Below are positions 2 to 20,876 of a stretch of 31,144 bases of DNA, piece after piece; position 1 is the first letter of the stretch; each line of letters begins with the position of its first letter. The notes below the pieces were generated by a model that searched no databases, was not told the DNA's origin, and worked only from the letters and a program-made list of their open reading frames with translations. Origin of the DNA: an uncultured Methanosarcinales archaeon (GTDB lineage: Archaea > Nanobdellota > Nanobdellia > Woesearchaeales > CAZYIM01); NCBI GenBank assembly GCA_964647565.1, contig CAZYIM010000019.1, positions 1 to 31,144 of the forward strand, written 5' to 3'. A program made the translations under genes and the position numbers.

Positions 2-400
2 AAACTCACAGACTTGTATTGGCCTGGTATCTCCAAGTGCATCACCTATGGCTGCAAAGCTTATCTCAGCATCTGCAAAATACTTGGTGATGCCTTCATC
101 AGGCTTCCAGAGCAATGGAAGCTTTTTGAAAAAAGTGTCCCTGTATGCGCCCATTGAACCAGTCAGATCCATTGCTATGACAATCGGCGTTCCTGAATCA
201 GTGCTGAAATCCTTTCCAGCAGGCGAGTTGTCATAAGACGAACTCTGAGCCCGATAGGTCCTTGTGCTTCTAACAGACTTTTTCGAACTCGGGGTCGAAC
301 TATAGGTTCGGCCGCTTCCATAAGCATTTCTAGCTGATTGGTAGCTGTATCCGCCACCGCTACTAGAGACGCTTGTATCGCTTCCCCAGCTATAACTCAT
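2..400 (-). CDS. vWA (MIDAS) domain protein; 5' part only, runs off the left edge; absent from the ORF track
   Basis: Manual translation from ATG at 400: MSYSWGSDTSVSSSGGGYSYQSARNAY...TPIVIAMDLTGSMGAYRDTFFKKLPLL...AEISFAAIGDALGDTRPIQVCEF, with no stop before the edge. It has a DxTGS MIDAS motif after a hydrophobic strand and a GGAGGTGG SD at 406-413. Confidence 0.85.
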   Translation of the reverse strand, partial: MSYSWGSDTSVSSSGGGYSYQSARNAYGSGRTYSSTPSSKKSVRSTRTYRAQSSSYDNSPAGKDFSTDSGTPIVIAMDLTGSMGAYRDTFFKKLPLLWKPDEGITKYFADAEISFAAIGDALGDTRPIQVCEF

Positions 401-546: not shown

Positions 547-1557
547 TTAGATTATTAGTTCTCGATTCGAAGTTCTCCTCCCAAAGATTTTGTATCGTAG
601 ATTTGACATGCTCTTGACTAGGTCTTCTTTCTCCCAGTTGGGTCTTCTTCGCGAATCGTGCAATATAAGAGAATCAATATAATCCCGAAGAGGTTTTGGA
701 GTTTTGCTGGGATAGGTCTTGCTTATCGGATTGCCACCAAGCATGTATATCATGGTTGCACCTAATGAGTAAAGATCGGTTTCTGGTACAGGCGGCATCT
801 CTGTAAGAAGTTCGGGTGCTGCATATGCAGCTGTGTATCCTTCAGGCTTGGTTTGGTGCCTTGGTTTAAGCATTGCAAAGCCATAGTCAACCAGGATGGC
901 GTTATGCTCTTTGGGTTTGATAATTATGTTTTGAGGTTTGATATCGCAGTGGACACATCCATGATAGTGCAGATAGTGAAGTGCATTTAGCAATCTTTGG
1001 GATATCCAGCAAACATGTTCTGGATGCATCGGCCCATGGTTATCAACAATCTTGTCTATTGTTGGACCTTCAACAAAGGTCATTGCAAGCACAAAACTGC
1101 CATCAGGTGCCTTAAAGAAATCGCGTAATGTCGGTAACGAATAATGATGTATATGCCAAAGAGTCTTAGCCTCCTTGATCAGAAGCTCGTCATCAAGAGG
1201 AGAGATGTTTATGTTCTGTTTAAGGCATGCGTACTCTTTTAGGATACGATGTTCTGCTTTGTATGTTCTTCCAAAAGCCCCTTCCCCAATCTGTTTGAGT
1301 ATCTTATAGTTACCTATTATCCCTTTTTCCAGGTCACTAAGAAAGTTGTCGTACTCTTTCCTCTTCTTGGGTTCCAAGAGGACTGATTTGGCTTCATTCA
1401 ACCTTGCACAAAGACTGTTTGAACCGCCATTGTCTGGATGATGCTTTCTTACCATAGCCAGATAAGCTGCATGGACAACCTCATAATCAGCTCGCGGATC
1501 AACTTGTAGAAGCTGGTAGAAGGAAACCAGTTGTTTGTTAAAGTTGTTCGGCTTCAT
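547..1557 (-). CDS. DnaJ (J-domain)-Ser/Thr protein kinase fusion
   Basis: N-terminal J-domain (FYQLLQV...AYLAMVRKHHPD...LNEAKSVL..PKKRKEYD) with HPD. Hanks-type kinase motifs IGEGAFG, catalytic-site Lys (CLKQ), HCDIKPQN, DYG, APE and DLYSLG. Confidence 0.93.
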   Translation of the reverse strand: MKPNNFNKQLVSFYQLLQVDPRADYEVVHAAYLAMVRKHHPDNGGSNSLCARLNEAKSVLLEPKKRKEYDNFLSDLEKGIIGNYKILKQIGEGAFGRTYKAEHRILKEYACLKQNINISPLDDELLIKEAKTLWHIHHYSLPTLRDFFKAPDGSFVLAMTFVEGPTIDKIVDNHGPMHPEHVCWISQRLLNALHYLHYHGCVHCDIKPQNIIIKPKEHNAILVDYGFAMLKPRHQTKPEGYTAAYAAPELLTEMPPVPETDLYSLGATMIYMLGGNPISKTYPSKTPKPLRDYIDSLILHDSRRRPNWEKEDLVKSMSNLRYKIFGRRTSNRELII

Positions 1558-1685
1558 TGTCTAATAATATATATACGAAAAATTTATATATATTTAATGC
1601 CACCCATATGCATATGAGTGGTTATATGGTTACAAAAACTATTAATATTCGATAACCCCATAGGTAAAGAATAAAACGAGGTTTC

Positions 1686-6078: not shown

Positions 6079-6108
6079 CCAAAATCATCTGGGAGCTGGG
6101 TAAGATTA
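6079..6108 (+). repeat. direct repeat copy 2 (displaced arginase 3' end)
   Basis: CCAAAATCATCTGGGAGCTGGG-TAAGATTA still encodes KIIWELG; differences from copy 1 are two synonymous third-position changes and a 1-nt gap. Confidence 0.8.
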
Positions 6109-6759
6109 CTGGTATTCCAGAGTCTTGCACACTTGGTCTGCTACTCGTTCTATGGTTCTCGCACCATTAGCAGCTTTATAGGCGCGTACTAAAGAAATAG
6201 CAGTATCAATAGTCCTATTATTATCATATACTGTAAGCATTATGCTATTGACTGCCTCATCAACATCCCGAACGCCTATAGCCCCTGCATTCACAGTCTT
6301 ATCTATGCTTAGGATAAGGGCTTCAACTTGGTCAATATTTTCATCAGGAGGCAAGGCATGCATAATTGAACAAGCACTATATGCTAAATCCTCTACACCG
6401 GCACCACTAGCACTATTGGTTGCTTTCTTAATGGCATAGATTAGGGTTGCTGCATCTTCTCCAGTTCGGCCTGTTGGCTCAAGGTTTCTCAACACATGTG
6501 TGCTCATCTTCATCAGATCATCCATTGAACAGCCACTTCCAGTATTATCACACTTGCCAAGAGCTTCAATAATTGTAGCCTGTCCAGCAGAGGTCTTGTA
6601 TATTTTATTTTTATTAGATTGACTTGCATCTTCTACTGAAGTAATAATAGCAGTTTCAACTGGCCGCTCTTCAGAAGCAGATTTACAACCATTAAGGTAA
6701 CCGATTGTCAGCATAGAAAACAGGGTGAATGTTATTGCAGGTTTGATATGCGATTTCAT
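6106..6759 (-). CDS. putative lipoprotein with about four degenerate helical repeats
   Basis: Signal peptide with lipobox-like LNGC. Repeat units: ATIIEALGK..., AATLIYAIKK..., VEALILSIDK..., AISLVRAYK... Confidence 0.65.
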   Translation of the reverse strand: MKSHIKPAITFTLFSMLTIGYLNGCKSASEERPVETAIITSVEDASQSNKNKIYKTSAGQATIIEALGKCDNTGSGCSMDDLMKMSTHVLRNLEPTGRTGEDAATLIYAIKKATNSASGAGVEDLAYSACSIMHALPPDENIDQVEALILSIDKTVNAGAIGVRDVDEAVNSIMLTVYDNNRTIDTAISLVRAYKAANGARTIERVADQVCKTLEYQ

Positions 6760-6831: not shown

Positions 6832-8187
6832 TTAAAAATAGATCGGTGGCGGGTAGCTGACCCTAAACAATGCCAGGATGATAACAATAAGGACTCCCAG
6901 AACTATCAACGAGCCGATGAAAGATGCTACTGTTATGAGTCCGTTTTTCCAGCCGTACTTAATGCCCATATAGAGTGCAGGAGCTATCAACACAAACAGC
7001 ATCCAGATAGCTGCTATCATGATGATCAAGGGCATGATTATACCTTCGAACCTGTAATGCAGAGCATCATCGATTACCTCAACTAAGAATGCAATCAGGA
7101 ACCATGAGAAAATCATCACGACTGCAGACACACCGCCTACAATGACAGATTTCCAGTTGAAGTCTCCTTTGACCTGTTCCTTTTTATGAGCTTTTGCTGC
7201 AAAAGGTTTTGAACTTTCTACAACAATCTTCAGTTTCCTCTTTCTCTGAGCTTTCTTGACAAGAGCTGAGACAATAAGGAAGATTGCCACTAATACTAGA
7301 ATGGTCATCAACCAACTCCAATAGTTCAATCCAAATGAAGACTTGGCATACTTGCCGTTGACCTGGAAAGACTCACCAGGATCCAGGAAAGTGGCAGTCT
7401 TGACATAACCGTTCACAGTGGTTATGGTAGATGCATATCTTTGATAGTCTGCTTCTGCTAACGATGAATCAGCAACGGCCTTCTGCATACCTCCGAGCAT
7501 CTCAAAGGCATTATCTCTATAGTTCACCTGAGAACCAGTGCCTTTTAGTTTTAGGTCCGGCTCAACATTAACTGCAACCCTGATGTTCTCAATCATCGAA
7601 GCCTTGTTGTCTATCAAGGTCTGGAACTTGAAGTTGTAAGATCCAAACAATGACTTGCTGGCTTGTCTGCTCAACTTGTACGAGATAAGAACTGTAATTG
7701 TGTCATCAGACTCAACAGCCTCTGGCAGTGTTATATACAGAATGCTCCGGTCAGAAAGCCTTTCATCCCTAAGATTCTCCCTTGCAACCCGGTCATATAC
7801 AGTACCAGAATGCGTGAAATAGGTACACTGCTTTTCAGATGTATAATGTTTACACTCGCCAGTATCATAATAATCATCGCAGACCTCAATATAATCATAT
7901 CTGGCGCAGATCTTCCTGTAATGTTCCACCATCACATCATATACCATGATGTTTTCTCCGGGGATCTCAAGAGCCAGTTGTGTCAGGTCGATCTCCTGTG
8001 TGTTCTTGATGGTCAATTTGGCACTGACAATAGCATCACCTTCGCCGTCATAAGTGACTGCATAATAATCATAGGTATGCCTGTATCCTGTGCTTATGAT
8101 AGATGTGGCGCTTGTAATAGGAAGCAGTGCCAATACCAATATCAAAAGCACAAACAAGGGAAATATATTCTTGTTAAAGTTTTTCAT
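6832..8187 (-). CDS. exported membrane protein: signal peptide, beta-rich ectodomain with a 4-Cys insert, about four C-terminal TM helices
   Basis: Long ORF with hydrophobic N-terminus and four hydrophobic C-terminal segments. A GGTGA SD favours ATG at 8187 (track start 8196). No family recognised. Confidence 0.75.
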   Translation of the reverse strand: MKNFNKNIFPLFVLLILVLALLPITSATSIISTGYRHTYDYYAVTYDGEGDAIVSAKLTIKNTQEIDLTQLALEIPGENIMVYDVMVEHYRKICARYDYIEVCDDYYDTGECKHYTSEKQCTYFTHSGTVYDRVARENLRDERLSDRSILYITLPEAVESDDTITVLISYKLSRQASKSLFGSYNFKFQTLIDNKASMIENIRVAVNVEPDLKLKGTGSQVNYRDNAFEMLGGMQKAVADSSLAEADYQRYASTITTVNGYVKTATFLDPGESFQVNGKYAKSSFGLNYWSWLMTILVLVAIFLIVSALVKKAQRKRKLKIVVESSKPFAAKAHKKEQVKGDFNWKSVIVGGVSAVVMIFSWFLIAFLVEVIDDALHYRFEGIIMPLIIMIAAIWMLFVLIAPALYMGIKYGWKNGLITVASFIGSLIVLGVLIVIILALFRVSYPPPIYF

Positions 8188-8249
8188 GTTTATCACCTGT
8201 TATCAATCTTTAATCATTAGTAAAGCAAGCATCTATTTATATATGGCAC

Positions 8250-8433: not shown

Positions 8434-8516
8434 AAAATAGCAACATGGCCGGGCGAGGCAGAGCCGAGTAGGACTTTGCTTGCAAAGTCCGTCCGTGCCC
8501 TTATTGGTGCTATTTT
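8434..8516 (+). ncRNA. structured three-way-junction element, short copy 1
   Basis: AAAATAGCAACAT-GGCCGGGC-GA-[GGC AGA GCC]-GAGTA-[GGACTTTGC TT GCAAAGTCC]-GTCCGTGCC-CTTATTGGTGCTATTTT. Confidence 0.7.
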
Positions 8517-8542: not shown

Positions 8543-11500
8543 TCAATCATATATCGTTATTCCAGTACTTGCACTCCTTCCATTTATCTCGGGGGCATAC
8601 ATACAGTGGGCTTGAGCAGGCATTGCAACGTAAAGTCCTGGGAACTCAGCCCTTAGCTGGTATGTTATGTTTCGCTGGCCTTTGTTGAGCCTTGTGTAAA
8701 ACGTATCGACCTTCTCATCCCTTATTTCCTTGTTGCTATAGCCCCAATGCCTGTAATAGCTGTAGAAATCATTGATCTTGTCCTGGACAACCTCAGTTCC
8801 TGCAGGTATATAATCCTCTATGATGATATACTCATAGTCAGCATCCGAGTCTATAGTCAAGGTAACATTGAACTCATCACCAGCCTTTATGTTGTATTTA
8901 CTGTACTGCCTGGTAACTGTTATACCATTGCTGTCAGCGTTTATGTTCCGGCTCTTGACAAAATACTCAAGTTGTTTTGAGTAATATAACATTCCGCTGC
9001 CTTCCTTTTCTACCCTGATGACACTATAAGGTCTTGGATGTAGCTCTACTTTTCCATCATAGGTCATTACATTGTCCTTGGTAATCCGGTCCTCTTTTAT
9101 GAGCAGACCATCCTGATATATCCTAAAAGTATAGTCTGGATTCAGCTCACCAGAGACCATCATGTAATCTGTCAGTGCAAAGATTGCCTGGGCAGTATCC
9201 TTGGTAGAGTACCAGTGGTTACCTCGTCTGGTCCGTACAAGATAATTGACTGCCTTGGGTATCTTATTGGATTCAGGTTTTATCTTGATCAAAGCCCTCA
9301 TCACATAAGAAGTCGCCTCGACATTGTTGTATCTCCAGTGATATCTGCCACCTTCCCAGTTGCACTCTCGAGTATTACAATTAGCTGAATTTTCAAGTAG
9401 CTCAACAATCTCTGCAGCTTTTTGAGTGTCTCCAGAACGATGATATGCAAGAGCTAAAAGAGCTTTTCCATAGTCAGACATCTTATCCCTCTGTTTATAG
9501 ATCTTCTCTGGCTCTGCCATGCCATGCAAAGAAAGCACATAGTGGATGTATGCCCTGGTGTTGGGATCATCAACTCTCTTATCATGGTCTTTCAACCAGT
9601 CAAGACCCCTATTGATCCTCCAGTCATCAACCTCGAAGCGGCTGTTCTGGGCTTCTGTCAATCCGTAGACAACATATGCAGTCATGAAAGCATTGCCGTC
9701 TCCATATTTCCACCAGCCCCAGCTGCCATCGCCATTCTGCATGTCATATAGTCTTTCAAGACCTGCAACTATCATAGGCAAAAGCTCCTCTTTTAAGTCA
9801 TCACGCTCAAGGCCGAGGGTTTCAATAGCTCGCAATACAATGATGTCTGGTAAGAACCTGCTCATGGTCTGCTCAACACAGCCATGTGGGTAGCCGATCA
9901 GATATGGAAGCGAATCCAGTGCAAGTGACGCTATTGATGGCGACAGATAGAGATTGAATTCTGTGGCATCTGTAACCAACTCCCCATCCTGTATATTGAT
10001 GATAAGCTCTGTCAATGTGTCCACATTGCCTGCGTCATAATCATACTCCTTGACTCCGCTAGGCACAATAGGAATGGTCATCTCAACAGCATCAGATTCT
10101 TCATCTGTCAAACTGTACAATGTGGCTTTGGTTTCACAGCAGCCCATGACCTGGACCTTGAAATCAACTCGCTTGTCCTGGCCTGCCTGTACTGTAATGA
10201 TCTTGCTATTGGTCTGCTTAGCATCTAGAATATCATCAATCTCAAGATCAACCTTTACCTCTTTGTCATGAGGCAGGTAGTTGTGTACTACTGCAGATAT
10301 GGTCGCTTCATCTCCCTGCGTAAATGTCCTTGATGTCTCAAACCTGACAAGGACATTCTTTCTTGTGATGATTTTATTGATGATCTGACCGGAAAGCATA
10401 TCTGGTGTGTAGGCCTTTATGGTTGATCTCCAGGTTGTTAATGTATCAGGCAGTTCCACATCTAATGTGGCCATTCCATCTGAATCTGTTATCATGTCTG
10501 GTTTCCAGACAACAACATCAGGGAAGAACTTCCTGACTACTGGCTTGACATACTCCTCTGCCTGACCCCCGCTTCTCGGAGCTCCGCCCGCACCATCAGC
10601 CATCTCAGCCATAGGTGCGCTTTCTATTTCCTCTGCTATAGAATTAAAGCTACTTTTCTGCATTACCATGTCATCAGCATACATTCCGCCGGACATTCGC
10701 ATTGTGGACCTTGTTGCCAGTAGTAGGAAAGCAGCTACTAACAATAATATCAAAACACCAAGCACAACCCCCATAGTTATTGCCAGTTTCTTATGATAGG
10801 TCTTGGCAAGCATCACTATCAGGCCGATGAATACTGCCAGTATTAAAGGAACCCCTAGTATGAGGGGAATCAAGAATTCGGGTTCCCCAACAACAAAGGC
10901 CAATAAAATAGGCAGGAAAATCAACCAGAAACATGCTACTGGAATTCCTATTGCCCAGCCTGGATGTCCTGTCTTGGCGCAAAGCACAATTAACCAGATT
11001 ATGGCTGCGATTATTATCAAAGCTAAGACAACAAGCAGAGTGTAGGCCAACAATTCTCCAGGAGCATATTCTTTATGAGATTGGATATAAGGATTACGCC
11101 AGTATTGTCTTGATGAATACTTGGTATTGACATCATTACGCATGAAAGTATTTACCTTGGCAAAGATGTCGCCTGAGTTATCAGGAGCCAGGGCATATAT
11201 TGGTTCGTCAACCATGCCAAAGCTGAAGCTTGCCTTAACAGGATTATCCTGATGATCCACCATCTTAATGGTGAAATGAGCGGTATCTCCTGCACCATAA
11301 GTCTCCTGGTCTGGAGTTACTGTGATATTGATTATCTTGTCTTTTGGAAGAACTATCATCTGCTGGGTTGCCCGAAGAATAGTATTATTTATCAGGAAGC
11401 TTACAGAAATATAGACATTAGGCTCATATTCAGACTTGATTGGCACCTGTACTGTCTTGGTGTAGGTGTCAAGAAAGACCGGAAAGACATCATAAACAGC

Positions 11501-13369
11501 GTCTCCTTCAACTGTAAGGATCCCATACGCATCCTTAATAGGAGATTCAATGACTATGTTGGCAATGTCGCCAGCATCATATGCCTGTTTGTCAGGCTCC
11601 AGATTAAGATTTCTATAGAAGTTATTGTTCACATCATAGACTCTTAAACGAAACTCAGTTGTGGCTGTATTACCCTTCTCATCCTTGCCTGATATTGTGA
11701 TTACATATCTGCCGTATTCCGGCGGATTGAAGTTAAAGGCTCCCTTGCCATCAACTGTTGCAGCAGTGCCCTCGACAATGGTGTCTCTCTTTTCCTTGAA
11801 AGACCAACCAGTGTAATAGGTTCGCTCAACCTTAACATCAAGATTAGCACTGACAGGAACATCATAGTAGTCCTTGGTCTCAAGATTTATCAATACATTC
11901 TCATTGATACCATAGTAGTATTTATCTGAACTGGCTCGAATATAATACAAAGCAGGGATTACTGTAATAGCTGCTGTATTGGAGACCTCTTTTCTAGCCA
12001 GGTCTGTAACCTTGGCTTCGACATAGTATTTCATAAGATAATCATTAGTTTCTGTCTTGAATCTGATGACTGCCTTTCCGTTTTCATCAGTTGTGGCCCG
12101 ACCTTCAGATATCATATCCCCAACGCCACCGTAATAAGGAACATAGTCATTATAAGGTGCATATAGGCAGCGGAAGTATCCTCCCCAACAGGGGCGTCGG
12201 TAGTAGCTCTTGAAAACCTGGTATTCTATGTTAGCGTTCTTGACAGGCTCGCCAAAGTAGTATTTGGATTCAAGATCCACTTCAACCTCCTGGCCTCCCA
12301 GGTAGACACTGTCCTCAGTATTCATGTTAACTTCATACTCAGGTTTTCGATATTCCTCAACCTTGAAACTATGGTAAAATCTCCTTCTTTCACCCAGTTG
12401 GAACTCTATCCTATAATTGCCCAGGTCTGGCTCTTCTTCAAGTGTGAACTTGTCAAAAATAGCACCATATTCATCTGTTAATAGGCTATTCTCGTAAACC
12501 TTGTCATTCTTGCTGTCGTAGACAACAAAATCAACATAATTGCCCTGCACCAAGTCCTTCTGCCGTTCATTGGTCCAGAAGATGGCCTTGAAATAGACAG
12601 TCTGGTTGGGCCTGTAGATTGGCCTGTCTGTATAGAAATAGGATTCATAAGCATCCCACCTGTCATCATCACGATAACTGTTACTAAAGTCCATAAAGGT
12701 TGATTCCCCTCTATAGTTAACAAGCATAAGAGAATAATCTGTTGCAGTAACAATACTGGCAATACCAAACTGATCTGTCTTAGTGCCCTTGATAAGATCT
12801 ATTTTGTTATAAAGCAAAACCTCTGCACCTTCAAGAGGCATGCCTGTTTTCTTATTAATAGCGAAGACTGTAATACCATTCTCAGAATGCTTGGCAACAA
12901 GGGAAATATCAGATACATGGAAGATATCCCTGTCGCTAAGAGTATTATATGTACCTTCAACTGCATATAGACCTTTGTCAAGAGTCAATGTCTTTAAACT
13001 ATTAAGCACATAATAGGTGTATTTTTCTTTTTCATAGCGATATTTCTTGGCCTTCTCATCATACCAGCTGGATATGGTACGCTCACCCTCTTTTTGCTTG
13101 CCAGTGAATGTCCATGATTGCACAGGAGTGATTGATCTACGGTAATCCTCACGTTCAAAATAATATTTCGCAAAGCTTTCGCTAGGTATACGGTACAAAT
13201 TCATATTTGCATGGGGCGTATCTCCATTAATGTTTAGAGTTATCTGGCCATTAGTATTCTCATTGGCATAGACATTGATGCGGTAAGACTTTTCATAGCT
13301 GCTCACAAAAAAAACCAGCAGCAGAAACACAAATATCAGAATTATTGGAAAAAGAGTTTTTTTATTCAT
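8543..13369 (-). CDS. alpha-2-macroglobulin family thioester protein with an internal multi-TM insert
   Basis: YTDRPIYRPNQTV (MG2), VEEYRKPEY, VRKFFPDVVVW, LPDTLTTW, thioester motif YPHGCVEQT, QNGDGSWGWW, WYSTKDT and MYAPEING. N-terminal signal peptide. A GGTGA SD favours ATG 13369 (track start 13378). Confidence 0.95.
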   Translation of the reverse strand: MNKKTLFPIILIFVFLLLVFFVSSYEKSYRINVYANENTNGQITLNINGDTPHANMNLYRIPSESFAKYYFEREDYRRSITPVQSWTFTGKQKEGERTISSWYDEKAKKYRYEKEKYTYYVLNSLKTLTLDKGLYAVEGTYNTLSDRDIFHVSDISLVAKHSENGITVFAINKKTGMPLEGAEVLLYNKIDLIKGTKTDQFGIASIVTATDYSLMLVNYRGESTFMDFSNSYRDDDRWDAYESYFYTDRPIYRPNQTVYFKAIFWTNERQKDLVQGNYVDFVVYDSKNDKVYENSLLTDEYGAIFDKFTLEEEPDLGNYRIEFQLGERRRFYHSFKVEEYRKPEYEVNMNTEDSVYLGGQEVEVDLESKYYFGEPVKNANIEYQVFKSYYRRPCWGGYFRCLYAPYNDYVPYYGGVGDMISEGRATTDENGKAVIRFKTETNDYLMKYYVEAKVTDLARKEVSNTAAITVIPALYYIRASSDKYYYGINENVLINLETKDYYDVPVSANLDVKVERTYYTGWSFKEKRDTIVEGTAATVDGKGAFNFNPPEYGRYVITISGKDEKGNTATTEFRLRVYDVNNNFYRNLNLEPDKQAYDAGDIANIVIESPIKDAYGILTVEGDAVYDVFPVFLDTYTKTVQVPIKSEYEPNVYISVSFLINNTILRATQQMIVLPKDKIINITVTPDQETYGAGDTAHFTIKMVDHQDNPVKASFSFGMVDEPIYALAPDNSGDIFAKVNTFMRNDVNTKYSSRQYWRNPYIQSHKEYAPGELLAYTLLVVLALIIIAAIIWLIVLCAKTGHPGWAIGIPVACFWLIFLPILLAFVVGEPEFLIPLILGVPLILAVFIGLIVMLAKTYHKKLAITMGVVLGVLILLLVAAFLLLATRSTMRMSGGMYADDMVMQKSSFNSIAEEIESAPMAEMADGAGGAPRSGGQAEEYVKPVVRKFFPDVVVWKPDMITDSDGMATLDVELPDTLTTWRSTIKAYTPDMLSGQIINKIITRKNVLVRFETSRTFTQGDEATISAVVHNYLPHDKEVKVDLEIDDILDAKQTNSKIITVQAGQDKRVDFKVQVMGCCETKATLYSLTDEESDAVEMTIPIVPSGVKEYDYDAGNVDTLTELIINIQDGELVTDATEFNLYLSPSIASLALDSLPYLIGYPHGCVEQTMSRFLPDIIVLRAIETLGLERDDLKEELLPMIVAGLERLYDMQNGDGSWGWWKYGDGNAFMTAYVVYGLTEAQNSRFEVDDWRINRGLDWLKDHDKRVDDPNTRAYIHYVLSLHGMAEPEKIYKQRDKMSDYGKALLALAYHRSGDTQKAAEIVELLENSANCNTRECNWEGGRYHWRYNNVEATSYVMRALIKIKPESNKIPKAVNYLVRTRRGNHWYSTKDTAQAIFALTDYMMVSGELNPDYTFRIYQDGLLIKEDRITKDNVMTYDGKVELHPRPYSVIRVEKEGSGMLYYSKQLEYFVKSRNINADSNGITVTRQYSKYNIKAGDEFNVTLTIDSDADYEYIIIEDYIPAGTEVVQDKINDFYSYYRHWGYSNKEIRDEKVDTFYTRLNKGQRNITYQLRAEFPGLYVAMPAQAHCMYAPEINGRSASTGITIYD

Positions 13370-13444
13370 GGGCATCACCTTGATTTAGTTATTTATAAAA
13401 CTTGTTTAGAATTTGTAAGTGATGCTATTATAAATAGTCAGGAG

Positions 13445-18590: not shown

Positions 18591-20053
18591 AAATCCAATG
18601 GGAACTGATCTATAAAGAGAGGGATGCAAATCTATTTCCATTCTATGTCTTTGCAAAGCCTTTTGGTACTATGATAAAAGACTTGGTAGGCAGGAATCTA
18701 TCACCCATTGCATTAGTGTTCTCAAAAAAAGGTGTGGAGTACTATGTAAACCACGAGGAATTCAAGAGATTGGGTGAAAAGGTATTTGAACTTTATATGG
18801 ATAAAAATTTCTATATCAACATGGTGGAGAGAATCGACGAATATACCTTGAAGATCACAGAATTTTGCGAGGATATCGAGAAACTTGATCTTGATAGTCT
18901 TAATGAATCTGATCTCAAGATGCATGTTGAAAAGCTCTGCATGTTTAATGAAGAGCTTGACAGGTGGGGCCAGCTAACCAGTATTTTGGAGTATGGCAAA
19001 AACAGCTTTCTTACAGACGGCTTGATGAAGGAGATTGATAAACAGATCAAAGAAAAAAAGCTTGATCTGAATAAAGTCGAAGTGTCAAAGCTCATGTCCC
19101 AACCTGTAAGAAGCTCATATTTTAGGGATGAGAAAATAGCCCTTATGAAACTTGCTGTGAAAGTACAACAAAATAATCTTAAACCAGAGAATATAATAGC
19201 TGAATTAGAGGACATAAAAAACAAGTACTGTTGGATCCTCTTTGGCTATGTTGGTCCTGCAATAACAGTTGAAGATTTAAAGAAAGAAATCTCTTCAATG
19301 GTTGAGAACAAGGATCTTGAAAAAGAGCTTGAAGAGAAACAACTGGAGCTTGATACGACCAAGAAAGCCCAACAAGAGATGGAAAATAAATTAGATCTTA
19401 ATGAATATTTCAAGATGCGTTTTAGAATAGTCAGGGAACAGACTTTCTATAAGGAACATAGGAAGGAAGTGTTATTCCATAGTTTCTATGTCTGTGAGTT
19501 AATACATGAAGCTTTAGCTAAAAGATATAAGCTGGACAAGCATATTTATAGATTCATACTGCCGAATGAGTATCATGGAGATCTTAAGTTGCTATATGAA
19601 CAAAGAAAGAAGCTTTGCATTTATTATATCGATGATGATCATGACCATGTTCTTGTCGGGGATGATGCAGAGAAGATTTTGGCACAAATCAATACAACTG
19701 AAAAAAAGAATCTTAAAAGAGTTAAAGAACTTAAAGGGCAATGTGCATTTGCAGGTAAGGTAAAAGGTAAAGTAAAGATTATCATGGGCATTAACCATCT
19801 TGAAAAACTTGAGAAAGGAGATATTTTAGTCTCCTACTCAACCAATCCTCAGATGACTATTGCCATGTACAAAGCAGGCGCAGTCATAACAGAACAGGGT
19901 GGTATTGCATCGCATGCAGCCATTGTCTCCAGGGAAATGAAGATTCCTTGTTTAGTGGGTGTACAAGGAGCCACAGAAACTCTAAGCGATGGCGACAAAG
20001 TTGAAGTTGATGCTACAAATGGTATAATAAAAATAATAGAGAAAGCGGATTAA
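18584..20053 (+). CDS. protein with a C-terminal PEP-utilising swivelling phospho-His domain
   Basis: LKGQCA..G.VKGKVKII...GDILV..STNP...AVITEQGGIASHAAIVSREMKIPCLVG. Helical N-terminal region; no ATP-grasp domain seen. Overlaps the HTH gene. Confidence 0.88.
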   Translation: MVKIQWELIYKERDANLFPFYVFAKPFGTMIKDLVGRNLSPIALVFSKKGVEYYVNHEEFKRLGEKVFELYMDKNFYINMVERIDEYTLKITEFCEDIEKLDLDSLNESDLKMHVEKLCMFNEELDRWGQLTSILEYGKNSFLTDGLMKEIDKQIKEKKLDLNKVEVSKLMSQPVRSSYFRDEKIALMKLAVKVQQNNLKPENIIAELEDIKNKYCWILFGYVGPAITVEDLKKEISSMVENKDLEKELEEKQLELDTTKKAQQEMENKLDLNEYFKMRFRIVREQTFYKEHRKEVLFHSFYVCELIHEALAKRYKLDKHIYRFILPNEYHGDLKLLYEQRKKLCIYYIDDDHDHVLVGDDAEKILAQINTTEKKNLKRVKELKGQCAFAGKVKGKVKIIMGINHLEKLEKGDILVSYSTNPQMTIAMYKAGAVITEQGGIASHAAIVSREMKIPCLVGVQGATETLSDGDKVEVDATNGIIKIIEKAD

Positions 20054-20876
20054 TTCTCAGTAGCCAACTCATCCATGGCTTCTGTCTGTAATTCAGCAAA
20101 ATCCTTTTTCTTGGGAAGATGAATATTGATCAGACCGAAGTGTTTTCTTTGGCGTATATCGATCTTCCGGGCATAGTCCAGATGCAATAGCGGAATGAAA
20201 GTATAAACCTTGTCCTCTTTGGCATCAGAAGGTATCAATTGTTCAAAAGTCAACTTAATAGTGCTTTCTTTCTTGAAATATACCTTTACTTTTTCATAGA
20301 CCTCTTTCATAACCAAGGTTATATCTTTAGGCTTGTCAGGCACTTCAGGCGGCGCAACAGTATTTTTCAACAGTCTATTACGCTTATCTTCTACATCCAG
20401 AGCCTTTCCAAAGCCTCAACAAGATCATAGACAGATACCTTTCTCTTTCTAGGCTGAGGTGTTCTTGGATATATCTTTGGTTTATTCAAGTCTTCCTTAG
20501 CTTTCTCTGCACCCATAGCAATATCCTGCAGCTCAGCTAAAAGATCCATTGGCTCCTCTGCACCCGCCAAGAGATTATCAAGCATTGTTATGTCTTCCTG
20601 CAGCAGCCTGTTGGACTTGATCTTAAGAAGTAATGCAGCTGCCAGAACCATCTTACCTGATATCCGAAAGTTCATCTCTTTTAACTTCCTGAGATTCTTG
20701 ATAAAGTTCTTGGCTATTAAAGAGACATCAATATCCCACGGATTCATCTGCTCAGCATTGATCATATCGTAGATGACATTCTGCCAAGTAAGCTCGTCTT
20801 CCTCAAATAGAAGCCCGAATATCTTATCAGACTGTTCTACCTGTTTATCTGTAGGTGGCTTTCTTCTCCGCGCCAT
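20050..20876 (-). pseudogene. scpA: segregation/condensation protein A (kleisin), split by a 1-nt frameshift near 20405
   Basis: N-part: MNPWDIDV, SGKMVLAAALLLKIKS, RKVSVYDLVEALE. C-part: TFEQL...VYTFIPLLHL...IDIRQ..HFGLI. Adding one A (GAAAGG to GAAAAGG) joins them as EALEKALDVEDKRNRLLKN. Confidence 0.85.

Follow-up and report, generated by a model that had tools for sequence, protein, structure and literature searches.

What becomes of a protease trap when membrane-spanning helices are built in at the very site that triggers it? This question is raised by an alpha-2-macroglobulin (A2M) gene on a stretch of 31,144 nucleotides (the window), contig CAZYIM010000019.1 of an assembly that is filed under an uncultured Methanosarcinales archaeon and placed by GTDB in the Woesearchaeales. 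To our knowledge, all A2M, complement and thioester-containing proteins that have been characterised present their bait as an exposed, soluble loop, whose cleavage acts as the single switch of the entire machine. An earlier note on this DNA had described about four transmembrane (TM) helices inserted in the bait region of the window A2M. The analysis presented here leads to the view, held as rather probable though far from certain, that the protein is a membrane-pinned thioester protease trap of a DPANN-type archaeon, with two helical hairpins at the edge of its bait.

The four hydrophobic segments quoted in the earlier note are present letter for letter. They form a block of residues 776–888 (nucleotides 10715–11053, where that note had given 10715–11055) between the A2M_BRD and A2M domains. 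Hydropathy was calculated on the Kyte–Doolittle (KD) scale with a 19-residue window, and charge-free runs were defined as stretches that hold no D, E, K or R. The segments lie in such runs and reach KD peaks of 2.72–3.52; the usual threshold for TM segments on this scale is 1.6. On the basis of hydropathy, length, loop charges and conservation, they are predicted to be TM helices (TM1 to TM4), and the loop charges follow the positive-inside pattern. The description of the segments as TM-like and even in number has thus held up.

The position of the block relative to the bait can be read from what follows it. Between TM4 and the motif VRKFFPD lies a flexible linker of 59 residues, which can be aligned with the soluble bait segments of relatives that have no insert (P0123, P0125, P0126 and others) and is poorly conserved in sequence among the insert-bearing relatives. 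The motif itself, in which R949, F952, P953 and D954 are invariant in both alignments (A1 and A2), is aligned with VRKYFPE (EEPHTETVRKYFPE) of human A2M, where the human bait has its C-terminal end. When the PDB was searched with a profile, the alpha' chains of C3b were found to start aligning at this same position (profile position 796 against chain residue 16), and the helical ANA domain of C3 stands immediately before the start of the alpha' chain. Because the residues past TM4 align with soluble baits and VRKFFPD marks the bait end, the helices are read as inserted at the N-terminal edge of the bait with a bait-like linker kept, so that the bait would be pinned to the membrane and not replaced. 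The linker is most likely the true bait. From FGMVDEPIY through VRKFFPD to about residue 965, the window A2M has 246 residues, versus 69–115 in 58 of the 70 aligned rows. The earlier placement of the insert in the bait region is therefore right as to position and in need of refinement as to detail, since the block sits at the N-terminal edge and a bait-like linker remains.

Two side observations concern this part of the chain. The bait linkers of the archaeal clade are Met-rich, with about 8 Met among the 59 residues of the window protein when counted by eye, and those of P0004 and P0123 are alike. Bacterial relatives (P0052, P0064, P0076, P0079, P0080 and P0083) have bait segments of 210–236 residues, with about 120–140 extra residues at the same bait edge, and CarboxypepD_reg stands in the precomputed Pfam lists of five of these six. 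Such cases suggest that the bait edge is an insertion hot spot. A search of the ESM Atlas with the window insert gave nothing that reached 0.8.

The insert is not confined to the window. A word-indexed search with residues 560–1100 yielded 339 proteins at E ≤ 0.001, of which the best 120 were listed, and an exhaustive HMMER search of 1.84 billion representatives yielded 9938 proteins, of which the best 150 were listed. Among the listed matches, only P0003 and P0004 (34–37% identity) can be aligned through the insert without a break. Bait-position hydrophobic segments were seen in 5 of the 263 collected A2M-family proteins: P0001 and P0002, which are both the window's own, P0003 with four helices, P0004 with four (Candidatus Woesearchaeota, MCF7862263.1) and P0122 with two. 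Helices at the bait were also found in two of the 80 loci from species-representative genomes, namely L005, which corresponds to P0004, and L006 with four helices; a metagenome scan with the A2M clade alignment gave 80 loci, none of them with bait helices. An insert between PF07703 and PF00207 is likewise seen in L006, P0122, L087 and L085, the last belonging to a second subfamily that is treated below. In the window's phylum, an A2M domain was detected by protein search and PF00207 in 4 of the 401 sampled genomes, and all four carry helices at the bait (four in the window, two in G357, eight in G351 and at least seven in G192, whose contig breaks off there). Homologs with such an insert thus exist (P0003, P0004, P0122, L006 and L087), but they are few among the relatives. 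Contigs from two public marine or seawater runs cover the insert with 0 differences, no indels and no joints. One contig, of 1038 nt, spans positions 10482–11519, although its run is possibly that of the source sample. No RNA run stands among the listed runs that contain the sequence. It is very unlikely that an assembly or frame artefact lies behind the insert.

The distribution of membrane anchors on a tree gives the insert an evolutionary setting. The tree was calculated from RxFFPD to the protein end, so that the insert was excluded, with an IQ-TREE quick search under LG+G4, and it is unrooted; 13 of the 36 chosen rows were dropped as their cut-point motif pattern was not matched, which left 23. 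Five insert-bearing proteins (the window A2M, P0122, P0003, the L006 protein and P0004) form one clade with a support of 97 in the Shimodaira–Hasegawa-like approximate likelihood ratio test (SH-aLRT). This clade lies inside a 12-row clade (support 89), and P0123 from Nanoarchaeota is its sister (support 94). A C-terminal hydrophobic segment is present in all seven other members of the 12-row clade, namely P0123, P0125 and P0135 from Altiarchaeota, P0005, P0126, P0127 and P0212; in P0123 and P0125 it takes the form of a TM helix that follows an extra stalk and bears a basic tail. It is present in none of the five insert-bearing proteins, whose chains end right after bMG10. The bait insert and the C-terminal anchor are therefore mutually exclusive in the tree sample. 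This mutual exclusion, together with the nested position of the insert clade, makes it most likely that the C-terminal anchor gave way to the hairpins, which took over its function. The L006 A2M is sister to a Woesearchaeota protein (SH-aLRT 99), and this placement points to gene transfer between lineages or to a mis-binned contig.

The topology of the insert was considered in six proteins (the window A2M, P0003, P0004, L006, P0122 and L087), with the charge-free runs taken as helix limits. The loops that are necessarily cytoplasmic if both flanks lie outside hold 32 K/R and 5 D/E in 73 residues, and the outside loops together with 15-residue flanks hold 23 K/R and 25 D/E in 194 residues. The crude helix counts are 4, 4, 4, 4, 2 and 2 in these six clade proteins, and over both A2M subfamilies the count is even in 28 of the 35 proteins counted. 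An N-terminal hydrophobic segment was found in the full-length members checked (P0001–P0004 and P0122). Because the loop charges follow the positive-inside rule and the number of helices is even, a chain with both A2M halves outside the cell and an out-in-out-in-out path between them is supported, although not proven, as the earlier note had expected from the even count.

That note had also regarded the block as a duplicated hairpin, and such a duplication is detectable in the window protein. Comparison of hairpin 1 with hairpin 2 gives a local BLOSUM62 score of 59, against 32.8 ± 5.2 for shuffled sequences, none of 2000 of which reach it; a repeat of the comparison gave a z of 5.0. The single hairpin of the G357 protein resembles window hairpin 2 (z 5.0, 0 of 1000) as well as hairpin 1 (z 3.5). 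No DNA repeat is left at the hairpin offset of 177 nt.

The remainder of the protein has the domain make-up of an A2M (Table 1). The reading frame is uninterrupted over 1611 codons, and the database form of the protein, P0002, starts 3 codons later than this open reading frame (ORF). The gene is the sole A2M-domain match in a genome-wide domain search, in which PF00207 was returned at the same coordinates as in the Pfam scan of the protein. Besides the domains in the table, Pfam detects MG2 at residues 246–340 (65.3 bits, cut-off 32.8) and TED_complement (74.6 bits, cut-off 22; best stretch at residues 1154–1266), and the matches to MG3 (20.0 bits, cut-off 23.1) and bMG3 (30.4 bits, cut-off 34.9) stay under the Pfam cut-offs. 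The thioester motif CVEQ is intact, as the earlier note had stated. Its C1167, E1169 and Q1170 are invariant in all four clade proteins of alignment A2, and both P0004 and the L006 protein read CAEQ. Judged by these matches, the window A2M carries the complete domain set of the type I bacterial A2Ms together with CVEQ. Scans with PADLOC and NCBIfam gave no matches. The N-terminal hydrophobic segment is read as an export signal or a signal anchor; the N-terminus has no lipobox Cys and consists of MNKK, the hydrophobic run and then VSSYEKS. Beyond residue 893 there is no hydrophobic segment, and the chain stops 14 residues past bMG10, which leaves no C-terminal anchor.

Table 1. Features of the A2M gene and its downstream neighbour in the window (positions in nucleotides of the window; residues of the 1611-residue A2M).
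Feature	Nucleotides	Residues	Strand	Remarks
A2M gene	8543..13378	1611 residues	-	GTG start; from ORF list and translation
N-terminal hydrophobic segment	13301..13357	8-26	-	KD peak 2.95; follows MNKK
A2M_BRD (PF07703)	11189..11608	591-730	-	Pfam E 1.3e-10, 42.1 bits, cut-off 22.7; last domain before the insert
TM1	10979..11053	776-800	-	KD peak 3.52; charge-free run 776-801; predicted outside to inside; then loop AKTGH
TM2	10889..10957	808-830	-	KD peak 2.72; charge-free run 803-831; predicted inside to outside; then acidic loop GEPE
TM3	10808..10876	835-857	-	KD peak 3.03; charge-free run 835-858; predicted outside to inside; then basic loop AKTYHKK
TM4	10715..10786	865-888	-	KD peak 3.12; charge-free run 865-889; predicted inside to outside
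Flexible linker	10538..10714	889-947	-	59 residues between TM4 and VRKFFPD; rich in Met, Ala, Gly, Glu and Ser
VRKFFPD motif	10517..10537	948-954	-	End of bait; 59 residues past TM4
A2M domain (PF00207)	10244..10513	956-1045	-	Pfam E 1.3e-16, 60.6 bits, cut-off 21; first domain past the bait
Thioester motif CVEQ	9869..9880	1167-1170	-	Located by motif; inside the TED domain
bMG10 C-terminal domain	8588..8917	1488-1597	-	Pfam E 7.3e-26, 91.3 bits, cut-off 26.2
Partner gene	6832..8196	454 residues	-	Signal, conserved ectodomain of about 260 residues, one TM, Lys-rich linker, more hydrophobic segments to the C-terminus, ending PPPIYF

Helices at the bait also occur in a second A2M subfamily. Its representative in genome G351 (L085:3361-8394, minus strand) has A2M_recep instead of bMG10, a thioester motif GCFEQ and about 25% identity to the window A2M. 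In this protein, eight helices stand between A2M_BRD (460–597) and A2M (990–1076), and the loop charges alternate when judged by eye. A search with the helix region of the G351 protein gave 923 proteins at E ≤ 0.001, and helix clusters of 6–8 helices just before RxFFPE are present in 49 of the best 120 that were listed, a share that is inflated because the query held the helices. GCxEQ is found in 25 of these 49, and the other 24 are short forms (1082–1188 residues) without CxEQ and TED. Members of the subfamily among the listed matches include P0276–P0293, P0338, P0345 and others, and the named sources include Woesearchaeota, Omnitrophota and Chloroflexota/Anaerolineae. No homology was detected between the inserts of 2–4 helices and those of 6–8 helices (hhalign probability of 3% versus 13% for the reversed control), and Pfam at E up to 10 returned sub-threshold noise only for both kinds of insert. 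The window A2M would thus work like the second subfamily but is, by its four helices, its bMG10 and its unrelated insert, not a member of it. The archaeal form with 2–4 helices is apparently of independent origin from the form with 6–8. A full-text literature search found no description of helices in a prokaryotic A2M bait. The earlier note would have given up its reading if the architecture were already common and described: helices at the bait are not rare in metagenomes, as those 49 listed matches of the other subfamily show, but the papers searched contain no account of the design.

A further observation in this subfamily concerns P0287, P0292 and P0345. They carry a zf-HC2 zinc finger of the anti-sigma-factor type at residues 7–36 (26–37 bits, cut-off 22.2) and a TM segment at about residues 86–111. 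Proteins of this kind could be anti-sigma-like fusions that are able to signal across the membrane.

Directly downstream of the window A2M, after a gap of 346 nt, lies a gene for a membrane protein, referred to here as the partner. The same order is found at L006 (CAYTWW010000001.1, a contig of 278,555 bp titled as a metagenome-assembled genome of Methanosarcinales), where the four-helix A2M is followed immediately by an ORF with 45% identity to the partner (E 9e-71). The homolog P0412 is 40% identical to it; P0412 and P0003 are each on a contig of 24,610 bp, from which we infer a third pairing of an A2M with this partner. There are 15 further partner homologs (16 in all), and those with a named source come from Micrarchaeota, Diapherotrites or an 'archaeon', so that the partner can be described as an unnamed DPANN membrane-protein family. 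It matches no family in NCBIfam, PADLOC or Pfam, where only sub-threshold noise was obtained at E up to 10. In the ESM Atlas, its best clusters are unnamed proteins of the candidate phyla radiation (CPR) and DPANN, and a weak resemblance to Ribophorin_I (0.80) can serve as a lead only. A search with the window query did not find the partner in G351, G192 and G357, and a metagenome scan with the partner alignment gave 80 pattern matches with 0 confirmed. The L005 contig ends 191 nt after its A2M with no partner start inside and is too short for the pairing to be judged. A complex prediction of A2M residues 560–1100 with the partner gave an ipSAE of 0.00 in two runs; controls were not folded, and this result carries no weight either way. 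It is probable that the A2M and this conserved neighbour in the membrane act jointly.

Some features of the surrounding DNA may be added. Within the 346-nt gap, about 55 nt past the A2M stop, there is an inverted repeat at 8471–8490 (GGACTTTGC / GCAAAGTCC), and an A+T-rich element (ATATATAAATA) stands about 40 nt upstream of the partner start. The other window neighbours are not conserved in any of the A2M loci L001–L087. The ORF downstream of the partner (6106–6759, minus strand, 217 residues) has a signal-like N-terminus that ends in the lipobox-like LNGC; no family was found for it with Pfam at E up to 10, and it is not kept beside other A2M loci. Further away, the ORF at 547–1557 (minus strand) joins a DnaJ J-domain (residues 13–70) to a Ser/Thr protein kinase domain (residues 84–283). 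The adjacent ORFs 20050–20370 and 20391–20876 (minus strand) match the C-terminal (profile 184–230) and N-terminal (profile 1–82) parts of ScpA, which indicates a split, frameshifted or unusually organised kleisin gene. A tRNA scan of the window found none. The genome as a whole (G000) comprises 2.68 Mb in 86 contigs, with 86.9% completeness and 1.85% contamination, as compared with 0.7–1.8 Mb for the listed genomes of the phylum. An assembly of this size is either unusual for the lineage or a sign of a mixed bin, and the symbiotic lifestyle that the earlier note had suggested for the archaeon is not established.

In the mechanism that we infer, the N-terminal signal would export MG1–MG6, and TM1–TM4 would then thread in, out, in and out, leaving two very short loops, AKTGH and AKTYHKK, both basic, in the cytoplasm. 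MG7, CUB, TED and MG10, which make up the C-terminal half, would hence lie outside too, and the cytoplasmic membrane would hold the A2M on its outer side. The real bait would be the linker between TM4 and VRKFFPD, which would lead from the membrane into the macroglobulin ring and be cut by a protease arriving at the cell surface. As in characterised A2Ms, the cut would unlock a conformational change, the Cys1167–Gln1170 thioester would be exposed, and the protease would be captured covalently. A latch through MG2, MG3 and MG6 is freed by bait cleavage according to 10.1101/2021.09.22.461418. The complex would stay on the cell, as the N-terminal fragment keeps the hairpins and the fragments may remain associated; an association of both fragments after cleavage is described for a bacterial A2M in PMC5764988.

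The same features can be arranged differently. The protein might be a trigger or signalling device, in which bait cleavage or a conformational change moves the hairpins and the partner or the membrane reads out surface proteolysis. The membrane protein with an ectodomain that is conserved directly downstream in the window and at L006, and probably on the P0003 contig, speaks for this, as does the signalling architecture of the three zf-HC2 proteins with their finger and TM segment. However, the cytoplasmic loops have only 5–7 residues and no domain lies in the cytoplasm, a signalling domain could not be recognised in the partner, which the window query did not find in the phylum's three other genomes with an A2M, and the 346-nt gap with its hairpin means that the two genes may not be co-transcribed. 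Such a device is regarded as unlikely. Covalent attachment is another use to which an intact thioester that is predicted to face outward could be put: like complement C3, it might bond a surface protein of a host or prey cell and thereby tether the archaeon, which corresponds to the host-contact idea of the earlier note. Many DPANN lineages are episymbionts, the relatives of the window A2M come from DPANN lineages, and the rarity of A2M domains in the phylum (4 of the 401 genomes) is what would be expected of an accessory surface trait. Against this, a cut past TM4 would sever the TED fragment from its anchor and make a poorer tether than the C-terminal anchor of the relatives, 2.68 Mb is large for the genome of an obligate episymbiont, and the Pfam scan found no adhesion domains in the window A2M. 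An attachment role is thus quite unlikely.

It is also conceivable that the insert buries or immobilises the bait, and that the protein no longer traps and has become a structural or surface-coat component. A loss of trapping does occur in membrane-inserted A2Ms, as is indicated by the 24 of the 49 helix-bearing matches of the second subfamily that lack CxEQ and TED. In the window clade, however, the four proteins of alignment A2 all keep C, E and Q of the thioester motif, which reads CAEQ in P0004 and also in L006. The TED and a bait-like linker are also kept across members that are only about 37–39% identical. Because these elements are conserved across diverged members, selection on the trap is indicated, and a disabled bait is considered very improbable. 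Finally, the sequence comes from a metagenome assembly and the TM status from hydropathy, so that one could suspect a chimeric assembly, a frame error or hydrophobic residues that do not lie in the membrane. Hardly any credit can be given to this suspicion in view of one unbroken frame of 1611 codons, the same architecture on independent contigs of other organisms (P0003, P0004/L005, P0122, L006 and L087), the run contigs that cover the block cleanly, and KD peaks of 2.7–3.5 over charge-free runs of 24–29 residues, which lie far over the usual threshold.

The preferred reading of a membrane-pinned trap has its own weak points. The TM assignment is a prediction drawn from hydropathy, length, loop charges and conservation. 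The helices were counted by hand from hydropathy and charge gaps, and the count is odd in 7 of the 35 proteins; these seven come from close relatives of even-count proteins, and their odd counts probably reflect crude counting. With two Arg, the 15 residues after TM4 deviate slightly from the positive-inside rule. An equally possible cut site is the stretch ahead of TM1 (about 25 residues in the window protein and about 45 in P0122). The linker is presumed to be accessible when pinned to the membrane, the thioester to form and the fragments to stay together. The duplication signal of the hairpins is limited to the window protein, and the pairs in P0003, P0004 and L006 give no such signal (z about 0). 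As regards the history of the insert, the tree is a quick, unrooted LG+G4 tree, and the word 'replaced' reads a direction into a nested topology. The two-helix G357 protein stands on a long branch outside the insert clade, and a single origin of the insert is for this reason not established. The third case of synteny depends solely on the equal 24,610-bp size of the P0003 and P0412 contigs.

If the preferred reading is correct, helices at the bait switch would fix the geometry of the trigger at the membrane surface, and a large extracellular machine would be anchored through its middle. The protein would then be a natural system in which to ask whether the latch model tolerates a tethered bait. 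The results bear on surface protease defence in archaea without an outer membrane and on the recruitment of A2M scaffolds for transmembrane sensing. What is added is the archaeal form with 2–4 helices, the anchor swap, the detectable hairpin duplication and a candidate partner gene, by which an uncharacterised DPANN membrane-protein family is flagged as a candidate A2M partner. A bolder idea, to which only a low probability is given, is that membrane-integrated thioester proteins are a general and independently evolved class in which the trigger loop is coupled to the bilayer, acting as surface-integrity sensors with the partner as co-receptor or effector. If true, this class would span 2–4 helices in DPANN archaea and 6–8 in Woesearchaeota, Chloroflexota and Omnitrophota, some members having an anti-sigma zinc finger. 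The trap would then also fire, or report, when its membrane part is attacked or displaced, whether by membrane-proximal or intramembrane proteases, membrane-disrupting agents or cell contact. Such a protein would be a prokaryotic surface-integrity sensor on the complement/A2M scaffold.

Among known systems, the type I bacterial A2Ms offer the closest comparison in domain content. In PMC3328433 and PMC5764988, they are described as thioester traps anchored to the cytoplasmic membrane, with a gene that adjoins pbpC (PBP1c), and the former source gives ECAM a signal peptide with a lipobox. Of the solved structures, those of E. coli ECAM/YfhM (5a42, 4ziq and 4rtd) and Salmonella SaA2M (4u48) match the family profile best (E 4e-91 and 9e-86), and the type I proteins share with the window A2M the MG domains, the bait-region domain, A2M, the TED with CxEQ and bMG10. 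ECAM has an N-terminal lipobox anchor, a soluble bait and pbpC next door. In contrast, the window A2M lacks a lipobox Cys and carries four TM helices at its bait; the conserved gene beside it is another one, and its host is an archaeon, which has no peptidoglycan. pbpC is missing as well, as the earlier note had remarked: a pbpC-like domain, whether transglycosylase or transpeptidase, was found in 0 of the 27 window ORFs scanned. A functional analogy for the partner gene may be sought in Pseudomonas aeruginosa, where MagD is anchored and stabilised by MagB, a TM protein of the same operon, according to PMC5764988. MagD lacks CxEQ and belongs to a six-gene mag operon, whereas the window A2M has CVEQ and no mag-like neighbours were seen beside it.

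Membrane attachment takes other forms elsewhere in the family. Large membrane proteins with A2M domains are mentioned briefly for a CPR bacterium in PMC8080830, and human CD109 appears in PMC7960916 and PMC12927315 as a membrane-tethered, monomeric protease inhibitor of the A2M family. CD109 (8s3o and 9fx2) is a strong profile match (E 1e-90), but its anchor is a C-terminal glycosylphosphatidylinositol and its bait is soluble. Nearest on the tree are the C-terminally TM-anchored DPANN A2Ms (MFC1697016.1 of Nanoarchaeota and MBN2518400.1 of Altiarchaeota, both uncharacterised), which are about 40% identical to the window A2M over the aligned part and share its bMG10 architecture and Met-rich bait linker. 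They differ from it in having a soluble bait of about 84–114 residues, as against 246 in the window protein, and a stalk, a TM helix and a basic tail after MG10. The A2Ms of the second subfamily share the polytopic block between PF07703 and PF00207, with a mostly even number of helices.

The most instructive parallel to the site of insertion is found in complement. The ANA domain is a soluble bundle, rich in disulfides, and is set free as an anaphylatoxin. In C3, C4 and C5, it is this helical domain that occupies the same position in the chain, with the cleavage site and alpha'NT behind it. The window helices differ from ANA in being hydrophobic and predicted to span the membrane, and there is no sequence similarity between the two. 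According to 10.1101/2021.09.22.461418, the bait of C3 is replaced by ANA and alpha'NT, with alpha'NT threading the MG ring. Because C3 carries ANA there, the bait site is evidently one that tolerates an inserted helical bundle.

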